Source: an uncultured Candidatus Saccharibacteria bacterium
GTDB taxonomy: Bacteria; Patescibacteriota; Minisyncoccia; Phycocordibacterales; UBA9973
NCBI GenBank assembly: GCA_964553015.1
Contig: CAZKJE010000001.1
Span: 94,278 to 158,277, forward strand
DNA length: 64,000 nt
Direction of reading: 5' to 3'
In this document: positions 56,299 to 58,317 of the stretch, piece after piece
How the letters are laid out: each line of letters opens with the position of its first letter
How positions within the stretch are numbered: the first letter of the stretch is position 1
The notes under the pieces: generated by a model
The model's database searches: none
What the model was told of the DNA's origin: nothing
The model's input: the letters and a program-made list of their open reading frames with translations, nothing else
Translations under genes and position numbers: made by a program

Positions 56299-58317
56299 AT
56301 GAAACACTCAAATAGGCTGGAAGGAATTATTTCTATTTCCGCGAAAGGAACTGGTTATGTAAAAGCTATTGGGCACAAAGATGACATAGAGATTGATTTT
56401 AAGCACTTGAACACTGCCCTCAATGGGGACCTTGTAGAAATTACGCTTCATGCCAAAAGCCACGGGCGCACCACCGGCGAAGTTTCAAAAATAATTTCCC
56501 GCGCAAAAAAAGCTTTTGCCGGAGTGATAGAAGAAGAAAGTAAATTATTTTTCCTGAAGCCGGATGATACAAAAATGTATACGGACATATTAATCCCCTC
56601 CGGCATGCTTCACGGCGCAAAAGTCGGGCAGAAAGTATTCGTGGAAATAGTTTCATGGCTGGATTCACGCAAAGCCCCTGAAGGCAAAGTAGTAAAAGTT
56701 CTCGGTCTTCCCGGAGACAATGACACTGAGATGCATGCCATCGCCATGGAAAAAGGCTTTGATGCTGATCTTCCTAAAAAAGTTGAAGAAGAGGCGCGTA
56801 AAATAAAAGAGTCGGGAATAAAAGAAAGCGATTACATGGACAGGCGCGACATGAGAAACACACTCACCTTCACCATAGATCCTGCGGATGCAAAAGATTT
56901 TGATGATGCGATATCTTTTAAAGAGTTGAGGCGCGATACATACGAAATAGGCATACACATCGCCGACGTATCGCATTATGTAAAAGTCGGCAGCGCGCTA
57001 GACACAGAAGCACGCGAGCGCGGCACTTCGGTATACCTGGTAGACAGGACGATTCCCATGCTCCCTGAAGTTCTTTCAAACGATCTGTGCAGTCTCGTGC
57101 CAAATAAAGACCGGCTCACCATGAGCGCCATATTCGTCATAGATAAAAATGCGGAAGTCAAAGAGGAATGGTATGGGCGCACAGTCATTCACTCTAAAAA
57201 AAGGTTCACATATGAAGAAGCGGAGGAATCTATAAAAAAAGCAGGTACGCCTCTGCATAAAGAACTTTCTATTTTAAATAATCTCGCAAAAAAACTCACC
57301 TTCGAGCGATTTGCGAAGGGCGCCATCTCGCTTGATCAGGAAGAAGTAAAATTCGTACTTGATAAAAACGGCACGCCGATAAAAGTCATAAAAAAAGAGC
57401 GCGGAGATTCAAACCGGCTCATAGAGGAATTTATGCTTCTTGCAAATAAAAAAGTTGCCGAAATTCTGTCGTCCAAGAAGATTAAAGGCCTGCCTGCCGG
57501 TAGGCAGGGCAAAACAGAAGAAGGTGTTTCAATATACAGAGTGCATGATCTGCCAAGCAAAGAAAAAATGGCAGACTTGGCTTTCTTCCTGCGAAGTTTG
57601 GGCCACAAAGTAAGCCTGCGGGACGGCATAATCCCAACGCATGAAATAAATAAACTACTTTCAAACCTAGAAGGCCACGGAGCGAGAGAGCACACCATAA
57701 AAAGCACTATGCGAGATACGATACACCGCGCGGTGATAAGGTCTATGGCTAAAGCAATTTACTCTACCAAAAATATCGGACACTATGGATTGGCTTTCGG
57801 TCATTATACGCACTTCACTTCCCCGATCCGGCGCTATCCGGACATAATAATACACCGGCTTTTGAGCGACTACTTGGCAAAAAAGAAAGCTCCGACCAAA
57901 GTCGGGGTCCCGACCGCAAGCGTCGGGAATAAACTGCTTGAATATGAAAAAATGTCACTCATTGCTTCCGAGCAGGAAAAGCGCGCCGCGGATGCAGAAC
58001 GAGCTTCCGTAAAATATAAACAAGTGGAATATATGTCTGCTCGTTTAGGTGAAATTTTCAGCGGAGTAATCAGCGGTATGACAGAATGGGGCATATACGT
58101 GGAAGAAGTGGAGACAAAGTGTGAAGGGCTCGTGCGCATGCGGGACATGCAGGATGATTTTTATGTTTTTAACGAAAAAAAGCTTGAAATGATAGGTCAG
58201 AAAAAGAACCTGCCTGCCGGTAGGCAGGGAAAAAAATACCGCTTGGGTGATAAGGTAAAAATAAAAGTCAAAGGGGTTGACTTGGAGCGAAAGACAATAG
58301 ATTATGTGTTAGTATGA
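56299..58317 (+). CDS. rnr: Ribonuclease R / RNase II-family 3'-5' exoribonuclease
   Basis: RNB catalytic domain (FTIDPADAKDFDDAISFKEL..GIHIADVSHYV..SVYLVDRTIPMLPEVLSNDLCSLVP), N-terminal cold-shock/OB domain, C-terminal S1 domain. Contains two in-frame copies of a GC-rich palindrome encoding LPAGRQGK. Confidence 0.9.
   Translation: MKHSNRLEGIISISAKGTGYVKAIGHKDDIEIDFKHLNTALNGDLVEITLHAKSHGRTTGEVSKIISRAKKAFAGVIEEESKLFFLKPDDTKMYTDILIPSGMLHGAKVGQKVFVEIVSWLDSRKAPEGKVVKVLGLPGDNDTEMHAIAMEKGFDADLPKKVEEEARKIKESGIKESDYMDRRDMRNTLTFTIDPADAKDFDDAISFKELRRDTYEIGIHIADVSHYVKVGSALDTEARERGTSVYLVDRTIPMLPEVLSNDLCSLVPNKDRLTMSAIFVIDKNAEVKEEWYGRTVIHSKKRFTYEEAEESIKKAGTPLHKELSILNNLAKKLTFERFAKGAISLDQEEVKFVLDKNGTPIKVIKKERGDSNRLIEEFMLLANKKVAEILSSKKIKGLPAGRQGKTEEGVSIYRVHDLPSKEKMADLAFFLRSLGHKVSLRDGIIPTHEINKLLSNLEGHGAREHTIKSTMRDTIHRAVIRSMAKAIYSTKNIGHYGLAFGHYTHFTSPIRRYPDIIIHRLLSDYLAKKKAPTKVGVPTASVGNKLLEYEKMSLIASEQEKRAADAERASVKYKQVEYMSARLGEIFSGVISGMTEWGIYVEEVETKCEGLVRMRDMQDDFYVFNEKKLEMIGQKKNLPAGRQGKKYRLGDKVKIKVKGVDLERKTIDYVLV
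57488..57510. repeat. Intragenic GC-rich palindromic element, copy 1 (gcCTGCCTGCCGGTAGGCAGGgc), in-frame in rnr, encoding GLPAGRQGK
   Basis: 20-bp near-palindrome (arms cctgcctgcc / ggtaggcagg, 1 mismatch). Identical 21-mer at 58209-58229. Related perfect palindrome at 63968-63985. Confidence 0.7.
58208..58229. repeat. Intragenic GC-rich palindromic element, copy 2, in-frame in the rnr S1 region, encoding NLPAGRQGK
   Basis: cctgcctgccggtaggcaggg is identical to copy 1 over 21 nt. The local GC content contrasts sharply with surrounding AT-rich codons. Confidence 0.7.

Follow-up and report, generated by a model that had tools for sequence, protein, structure and literature searches.

In-frame insertions of a very small GC-rich palindrome in the RNase R gene of an uncultured Candidatus Saccharibacteria bacterium and its relatives

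Why should rnr, the gene encoding RNase R, contain the same short GC-rich palindrome twice? The question is raised by 64,000 nucleotides of DNA from an uncultured Candidatus Saccharibacteria bacterium (contig CAZKJE010000001.1, positions 94,278 to 158,277), called here the window. An exact scan of the window finds the 21-mer CCTGCCTGCCGGTAGGCAGGG at two places in rnr, both on the forward strand, and a related perfect palindrome of 18 nucleotides, CCTGCCTGCGCAGGCAGG, in nusB. Both copies in rnr are precise, in-frame insertions of 21 nucleotides in loops of the protein, and the palindromes probably belong to an insertion element that is palindromic, GC-rich, and extremely small (18-21 nt).

The 21-mer matched nowhere in 100 dinucleotide-preserving shuffles of the window. 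Its two copies lie in the same frame of the RNase R open reading frame (ORF), translated as GLPAGRQGK and NLPAGRQGK, and the 18-mer is translated as FLPAQAGS on the reverse strand. An earlier note on this DNA had reported all three palindromes, with the same peptides. Its coordinates led to the right elements, each start having been placed one base early, and its figure of roughly 60% G+C was too low: the elements have 71% and 78%, against a window mean of 42%. The 20-nt core of the 21-mer, a 10+10 palindrome, has one G.T position, owing to which the sense strand folds better than the antisense (-10.2 and -7.1 kcal/mol as DNA). As RNA, the sense strand is predicted to form a hairpin with an 8-bp stem, one G.U pair included, at -13.4 to -15.6 kcal/mol. 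The core defines what we call family 1, (CCTG)2CC/GG(CAGG)2 together with its one-transition G.T derivative. The 18-mer is a variant of it without the central CG, and all three family-1 copies in the window are intragenic. A second family, TCCCGAC-loop-GTCGGGA, is represented in rnr by a tandem pair of hairpins, which encodes APTKVGVPTASVGN and folds as RNA at -23.3 kcal/mol (z = -4.1). At Rfam gathering thresholds, the window yields three tRNAs only, with no match at the palindromes.

The evidence for insertion comes from an alignment of 120 orthologous RNase R proteins and from codon-threaded DNA of relatives' loci (loci outside the window are given by L numbers). The host is a Nomurabacteria/Paceibacterota (Patescibacteria) bacterium. 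Its RNase R shows 100% identity to P0001 and 72-85% to upwards of 100 orthologues from Nomurabacteria/Paceibacterota. At least 115 of the 120 lack LPAGRQG, and both copies of the peptide occupy gap columns. At the site of the first copy (site 1, KKIKG-LPAGRQG-KTEE), the insert is missing even from the closest relative, P0002; at that of the second (site 2), GQKKKKKY in most orthologues corresponds to GQKKNLPAGRQGKKY in the window. The DNA is equally clear. With the insert in parentheses, site 1 reads AAA GG(C CTG CCT GCC GGT AGG CAG GG)C AAA in the window and AAA GGC AAA/AGA in L121, L122, and L123. Site 2 reads AAG AA(C CTG ... CAG GG)A AAA in the window and AAA AAG AAG AAA AAA in L122, and it is empty in L124 and L125 as well. 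The empty sites, AAA GG/C AAA and AAG AA/G AAA, cleanly lack any palindrome arm. Both sites are A-rich, lysine-coding stretches, and the codon-threaded alignments show no consistent target duplication at either. LPAGRQG is thus an insertion and not, as the earlier note had allowed, an ancestral motif, for the orthologues do not encode the peptide in non-palindromic DNA.

Where the inserts fall in the protein can be judged from an AlphaFold2 model of the window's RNase R, which is of moderate quality (mean pLDDT 64). Sites 1 and 2, along with the family-2 pair (site 3), are all modelled as coil between secondary-structure elements or as low-confidence loops, in keeping with the loops that the earlier note had in mind. 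Site 1, within the Pfam RNB domain, would lie in coil between helices 370-390 and 421-433 (pLDDT <50), and the stretch in which it falls (about residues 398-410) has no counterpart in Bacillus subtilis RNase R (8cdu_C). Site 2, within S1, would lie in coil between strands 630-634 and 646-648 and corresponds to an exact 7-residue gap against the same solved structure. Site 3 comes directly after RNB.

Table 1. Positions in the window of the palindromes, their host genes, and other features mentioned in the text
Feature	Position	Strand	Basis or remark
rnr, RNase R, 672 aa	56299-58317	+	Pfam OB_RNB, CSD2, RNB, S1
Family-1 copy 1 (site 1), LPAGRQG, RNB-domain loop	57489-57509	+	Empty in L121, L122, L123
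Family-2 tandem (site 3), (C)CCGAC-caaa-GTCGG(G) + TCCCGAC-cgcaagc-GTCGGGA, linker after RNB	57889-57928	+	Fold, orthologues
Family-1 copy 2 (site 2), LPAGRQG, S1-domain loop	58209-58229	+	7-residue gap against 8cdu_C
nusB-nudix fusion, N-terminus beyond window end	63109-64000	-	Translation; orthologues annotated NusB + NUDIX
18-nt family-1 variant, LPAQAG, near NusB N-terminus	63968-63985	gene on -	Exact match, translation
Y1/IS200-like gene, like those of repetitive extragenic palindrome (REP)-associated tyrosine transposases (RAYT)	42617-43297	+	
Inverted hairpins at the Y1 gene, TTGAGCAAGGaccccCCTTGCTCAA and TGAGCAAGGggagtCCTTGCTCA	42565-42589; 43270-43292		
Direct repeat, ~55 nt	42509-42561; 43328-43380		Outside the Y1 hairpins
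CCCCTC-aa/tt-GAGGGG, three copies	41976-41989; 42413-42426; 42457-42470		
Solitary hairpin GCAAGGACcGTCCTTGC	11653-11669		Intergenic
ORF of a 1402-aa protein	18910-23118	-	
CCCTGCCCCAACCCTCCCCGAAGGAGAGGGTGAAGTGAG in the ORF of the 1402-aa protein	19075-19110		Read PAPTLPEGEGEVS

The palindrome extends far beyond rnr. A scan of 596 Gb of species-representative genomes, whose matches are a lower bound, found the exact 20-mer CCTGCCTGCCGGTAGGCAGG in at least 120 genome stretches, belonging to a dozen lineages or more; chance alone would give about 1 match. With these and the 12 viral stretches that also carry it, an internal duplication of rnr, which the earlier note had kept as an alternative, does not describe the family. 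The carriers include Bacteroidota (with the isolates Olivibacter oleidegradans, Flavobacteriaceae R38, and Thermobacterium salinum among them), Ignavibacteria, many classes of Patescibacteria, Chloroflexota, Nitrospirota, Planctomycetota, Omnitrophota, Desulfobacterota-like metagenome-assembled genomes (MAGs), Terriglobia, WOR-3, and Stahlbacteria; no cyanobacterium is among the matches listed (80 record titles). The G+C of the loci varies between 0.26 and 0.66, and the sequences on either side are unrelated. Since copies in other lineages lie mostly within short open frames, they appear to be in non-coding DNA. Long ORFs of other genomes hold the 20-mer in sense 9 times and in antisense 5 times, but these 14 ORFs are unverified and too few to interpret. 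In viral contigs, the G.T form of the 20-mer occupies 14 sites, the perfect palindrome CCTGCCTGCCGGCAGGCAGG 44, and the 18-mer 29; the ACCGGT variant and a composition-matched control palindrome have 1 site each, and the family-2 21-mer has none. From these counts, family 1 is widespread, and family 2 is apparently restricted to the window's lineage.

Two candidate accounts of this distribution were rejected. The 20-mer might belong to a larger conserved element, but the 200-nt flanks of 129 copies, compared all against all by BLAST, share only tRNAs and other short hairpin words. It might also be an artefact of sequencing or assembly, but the insert is in frame, occurs at the same site in three independent assemblies, and is found in isolate genomes too. 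The insert is not known to match any common sequencing adapter. In the literature, searches with the sequence or with its peptide met with nothing but unrelated primers, and searches by concept gave no report for Patescibacteria, which agrees with the earlier note in regarding such elements as undescribed for the lineage.

The surroundings of the dispersed copies have some regularities. At four loci (L006, L022, L037, and L073), the element is nested in itself, at the central CCG^G, and at others the 20-mer occupies the loop of another hairpin (a terminator-like one in L038, a attcccgcGAAAgcgggaat hairpin in L057). The flanks of 184 copies form a stem around the element of at least 6 bp in 8.2% of cases and of at least 8 bp in 3.3%, as against 2.4% and 0.3% of random positions. 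Direct repeats of at least 5 nt flank 10% of the copies (2% in the control), an excess due mainly to short tandem repeats in which the element lies; they therefore do not point to a regular target duplication. The adjacent bases are biased: G (68%) or A (25%) at -1, and G (57%) or T (24%) at +1.

Further short hairpin words are shared by unrelated lineages. One, TGTCATTCCCGCGAAAGCGGGAATC, was found in flanks of the 20-mer at L005, L027, and L013: a flavobacterium and a Doudnabacteria MAG agree over 25-28 nt, and a Saccharibacteria MAG has 2 mismatches. In the window itself, the low-complexity C-terminal tail of a 1402-aa protein contains CCCTGCCCCAACCCTCCCCGAAGGAGAGGGTGAAGTGAG, resembling the CCCTCTCC/GGAGAGGG hairpin element of other loci.

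Some copies lie in tRNA sequences. The perfect 20-nt palindrome lies in viral tRNA genes, in the variable loop at L141 8616 and L164 2284 (tRNA-Met-like) and in the D loop at L171 515; a variable-loop copy would simply give the tRNA a long extra arm. At 7 of the 120 genome loci, a displaced tRNA 5' half carries the 20-mer in its D-arm region, and an ORF for a 77-aa GIY-YIG nuclease follows 30-70 nt downstream (L112 about 7000-7400, L032 1380-1740, L064 2570-3060, L008, L046, L102, and L063). Five of the seven have an intact tRNA downstream, according to Rfam matches (L112, L063, L046, L064, and L008). That the 20-mer had merely interrupted a tRNA gene was considered and rejected, as ARAGORN finds none restored when the 20-mer is removed in silico. 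By a rough estimate of the rarity of such leaders, the association is far commoner than chance. Either the leader containing the tRNA half is a strong target, or perhaps the GIY-YIG nuclease has a role in insertion.

Do the insertions in rnr date from one event at each site or from many? At site 2, the identical 21-mer occupies the identical nucleotide position in L121 (85% protein identity) and L123 (76%), which are non-sister lineages. The three copies differ by 0 of 21 substitutions, and the flanking 300 nt are 76-86% identical. At site 1, straight after AAAGG, there are four differing inserts: the 20+1-mer of the window, the 18-mer in L124 (the same palindrome as in nusB), the 2-substitution variant CCTGCCTGCCAGTGGGCAGGG in L125, and a diverged 21-nt hairpin in L257. 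When the 120 proteins are placed on a neighbour-joining tree, the minimum number of changes by Fitch parsimony is 4 at site 1 and 2 at site 2. The family-2 pair is identical in L121, L122 bears a different hairpin at that site, and L123, L124, L125, and L127 are about 10 codons shorter there. In L127, rnr site 2 holds a 45-nt dimer containing TCCCGACCGCAAGCGTCGGGA, identical to 57908-57928 of the window, and the dimer appears again, reverse-complemented, in a second gene of L127. There are additional GC hairpins in rnr, smc, and nusB of L126, L122, and L121. Different hairpins (those of L122, L126, L127, and L257) share the same hot spots. Another element, CCTCACCCC..CCCCTCTCC-loop-GGAGAGGGG, was seen inserted in frame (15-21 aa) in RNase R of L121 and in another gene of L121 and L122.

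Such recurrence may mean either that sites are precisely targeted or that old insertions diverge in place and are frequently and precisely lost. At site 1, either reading would fit. The copies differ from one another (the 20+1-mer and the inserts of L125, L124, and L257) as divergence in place would have them do, and the window's copy is bounded by GGC...GGC, direct repeats that would permit slippage and so precise deletion. At site 2, the perfect identity favours recent, repeated insertion. One might nonetheless suppose that all these are immobile relics, the result of one ancestral hit per site, kept because an mRNA or DNA hairpin was under constraint, and repeatedly removed through precise slippage that the hairpin stimulates. 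This is unlikely. It would require independent precise losses in most of the 120 orthologues, and it would have to reconcile an unchanged insert at site 2 with flanks that are about 24% diverged. It also leaves unexplained why identical copies are found at two sites in rnr and why the 20-mer is found between unrelated flanks in other lineages and in viruses.

The palindrome in nusB is a weaker case than those in rnr, a partial insertion only. At its position, five orthologues read DF-(L/T/S)(P/S)(A/I)-(D/E/S)K.., and the left arm, CTG CCT GCG, encodes L-P-A where most of the orthologues compared have L-P/S-A (three of them have T-P-A, S-S-A, and L-P-I). Since L-P-A aligns with residues of the orthologues, the net gain is only QAGSP, or 15 nt; of the in-frame insertion claimed earlier for nusB, the right half with a few bases is indeed extra and the left arm is not. 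The resident CCTGCCTG has its exact complement in CAGGCAGG, with which the extra DNA starts; this would fit either an insertion guided by microhomology or an error of fold-back copying. In L122, an unrelated hairpin, CGTCTCGC...GCGAGACG, occupies this position, hence the nusB site too is a hot spot. Throughout the lineage (the window and the orthologues in L121-L125), NusB carries a C-terminal fusion to a Nudix hydrolase.

Perhaps, then, fold-back or template-switch errors make all of these palindromes on the spot, by the kind of quasipalindrome mutagenesis that copies an adjacent arm. The nusB palindrome, with its orthologue-like left arm followed by the complement of that arm, is what one would expect of such a process, as are the unequal numbers of left and right half-arms at some loci (L073). 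As an account of the family, however, it is very improbable. The empty sites in rnr, AAAGG/CAAA and AAGAA/GAAA, offer no arm to copy, yet the full 21-mer is there; the process cannot yield the same 20-mer in unrelated contexts; and the complete 18-mer of nusB already exists at another site, rnr site 1 of L124.

If insertion requires an enzyme, the window supplies a candidate, a Y1/IS200-like gene (Table 1). Pfam Y1_Tnp matches a 42%-identical relative of its product, encoded in L123, and for both proteins the top NCBIfam model is that of the REP-associated tyrosine transposase (E about 1e-9, and 8e-10 for the window's protein, below the curated cut-off). The protein family is 72-85% conserved over the lineage, like a vertically inherited single-copy gene. 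Inverted REP-like hairpins of the form TGAGCAAGG-N5-CCTTGCTCA bracket the gene in the window, and in about 50 metagenome loci the hairpin TGAGCAAGG-ACTMC-CCTTGCTCA lies on both sides of a RAYT-like gene, with compensatory changes in its stem (GCAAGG/CCTTGC, GCGAGG/CCTCGC, and ATCGAGG/CCTCGAT). The recurrence of this hairpin and its compensatory changes mark a conserved REP/RAYT-like system in Paceibacterota, and a transposase with hairpins of its own, in the window and in the lineage, shows that hairpin-handling HUH enzymes are present. Three side observations concern the same region or the same hairpins. The direct repeat outside the bracketing hairpins duplicates the 3' end of the neighbouring gene. 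The three copies of CCCCTC-aa/tt-GAGGGG lie just upstream of the RAYT-like region, and two of them make a longer inverted pair (around 42413-42470). The solitary hairpin GCAAGGACcGTCCTTGC matches the subtype flanking RAYT-like genes in L243 and L254 and may be a dispersed copy of the RAYT-flanking REP family.

Could this transposase mobilise the palindromes in rnr and nusB as its REPs? It is a Y1_Tnp protein, it is conserved over the lineage, and its gene is flanked by inverted hairpins; moreover, intragenic REPs are documented in other systems (PMC3733652). But the hairpins that flank it are of a different family, at about 50 loci without a CCTGCC or TCCCGAC hairpin, and family 1 lacks an unpaired GTAG or CGTC tag. 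We give the idea little credence. Least credible of all is that the palindromes were selected for a function of their own (the LPAGRQG peptide, an mRNA hairpin tuning translation or decay, or a protein-binding palindrome): the sense-strand hairpin is stable and the nucleotides at site 2 are perfectly conserved in three lineages, but the insert is missing from most orthologues, the three sites in rnr are structurally unrelated loops, and the same sequence turns up outside coding DNA, in several reading frames, within tRNA loops, and in viruses.

We return, therefore, to a small palindromic insertion element. In the mechanism we propose, a trans-acting enzyme specific for both structure and sequence would copy or move the element in the form of a single-stranded hairpin. 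The likeliest such enzyme would be a single-strand transposase of HUH/Y1 type, or a nuclease related to one, encoded on horizontally mobile DNA. The element would insert into transiently single-stranded, easily melted DNA. Selection would then retain within genes only those copies whose length is a multiple of three, which lack a stop codon, and which fall in surface loops. Added peptides such as LPAGRQG would be the by-product, with no function required of them. Slippage across the hairpin probably also removes copies precisely. A single-strand mechanism of the HUH type is favoured by the precision of the insertions without target duplication, by substrates that form hairpins, and by targets that are easily melted or looped. 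The earlier note spoke of a selfish palindromic repeat family; that the element is selfish and mobile is an inference.

Several observations weigh against this reading. An enzyme linked to family 1 was not found. The RAYT-like gene is flanked by another hairpin family, 220 kb of RAYT-like loci contain no copy of family 1 or family 2, and in the 120 genome loci (each at most 8 kb) there was only one weak match to a Y1 protein near the 20-mer. Copy number in the lineage is low: 392 kb, selected in part for carrying the element, hold 8 copies of family 1. The identity of the 20-mer over many lineages is hard to square with the species-specific matching of REP and RAYT. The site-1 variants could descend from a single old insertion, diverged in place and repeatedly lost with precision, and in nusB, where the left arm looks ancestral, a fold-back origin fits better than insertion.

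There is also a bolder reading. It is possible, though we hold it only tentatively, that CCTGCCTGCC/GG(C/T)AGGCAGG is one of a number of shared 18-28-nt hairpin words, TGTCATTCCCGCGAAAGCGGGAATC being another, that hairpin-recognising machinery actively inserts in many bacterial phyla and in their viruses.

What known elements do these resemble? They are best read as mini-palindromes like small dispersed repeats (SDRs) or REPs rather than like Rickettsia palindromic elements (RPEs), and the closest analogue would seem to be the SDRs of Nostoc. SDR1-8 of Nostoc/Anabaena, reportedly described by Elhai et al. in 2008, are said to be 21-27 nt in length. The elements here are 18-21 nt. Both kinds form hairpins, both lack a known enzyme, both are present or absent at otherwise conserved sites, and both nest within other repeats: SDR5 lies between bases 3 and 4 of HIP1, family 1 at its own central CCGG. 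The likeness is one of description. SDRs are reported only from Nostocaceae, whereas the family-1 core is identical over many lineages and viral contigs, and the copies described here lie in frame within conserved housekeeping proteins. A Nostoc SDR inserts precisely in the HIP1 palindrome (PMC4390886), and SDRs are reported absent outside Nostocaceae (PMC5861425).

REPs carry an unpaired GTAG or CGTC tag at the end of the stem-loop and have occasional intragenic copies, often in genes for nucleic-acid enzymes (PMC3733652), and RAYT transposases accompany them (PMC3116915). The resemblance lies in GC-rich imperfect palindromes of 20-40 bp, with G.T positions in their stems and occasional in-frame copies within genes, and in the presence of a RAYT-like gene with flanking hairpins in the window's genome. 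The differences are considerable. There is no unpaired tag in CCTGCCTGCCGGTAGGCAGG, because its GTAG lies within the paired arm, and the perfect palindrome has no GTAG at all. Family 1 appears sparse in the lineage, the hairpin flanking the RAYT-like gene is of another family, and a 20-mer shared by many lineages is unlike REP families, which are specific to a species or genus.

RPEs are said to have been found by Ogata et al. in 2000, in frame within conserved protein genes, whose surface regions tolerate them. RPE-1 is about 100-150 bp long and encodes 30-50 residues, and RPEs are confined to Rickettsia. The analogy drawn in the earlier note is apt as to behaviour, since both are palindromic repeats in frame at tolerated sites of conserved protein genes, and it fails as to size, sequence, and restriction to a lineage: RPE-1 is five to seven times longer, the elements here add 5-7 residues, there is no similarity of sequence, and the present elements are not lineage-specific. 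Short elements, RPE-4 and RPE-6, are also documented in Rickettsia (PMC3733652).

The GC-rich palindromes of the window can be likened to two further classes. GC clusters and double-hairpin elements of fungal mitochondria, usually 30-60 bp and in some cases bypassed in translation, are likewise short and palindromic, rich in GC, able to spread through AT-rich genomes, and at times located in coding sequence. They are organellar, however, and unrelated in sequence, and the elements here are read through. Miniature inverted-repeat transposable elements (MITEs), which have terminal inverted repeats derived from an insertion sequence and a target-site duplication of fixed length, differ in that the two 21-mer sites in rnr have no consistent target-site duplication, and to our knowledge family 1 is far shorter than any MITE described.

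If palindromes of 18-21 nt are mobile, they stand at the lower size limit for mobile DNA, and they show a route by which small genomes may add short surface loops to conserved proteins. The identity of the 20-mer between unrelated flanks, across lineages and viruses, is not predicted by the REP/RAYT model and points to another mechanism of insertion, one that can be tested biochemically. If the still broader reading in terms of shared hairpin words were true, no smaller mobile DNA would be known; these elements would cross between phyla and would generally supply proteins with short loop insertions and tRNAs with extra arms. There are practical consequences as well. Such inserts inflate the number of genes called hypothetical proteins and may break assemblies, and recurrent insertions and deletions of this kind mislead the protein alignments and phylogenies of Patescibacteria.

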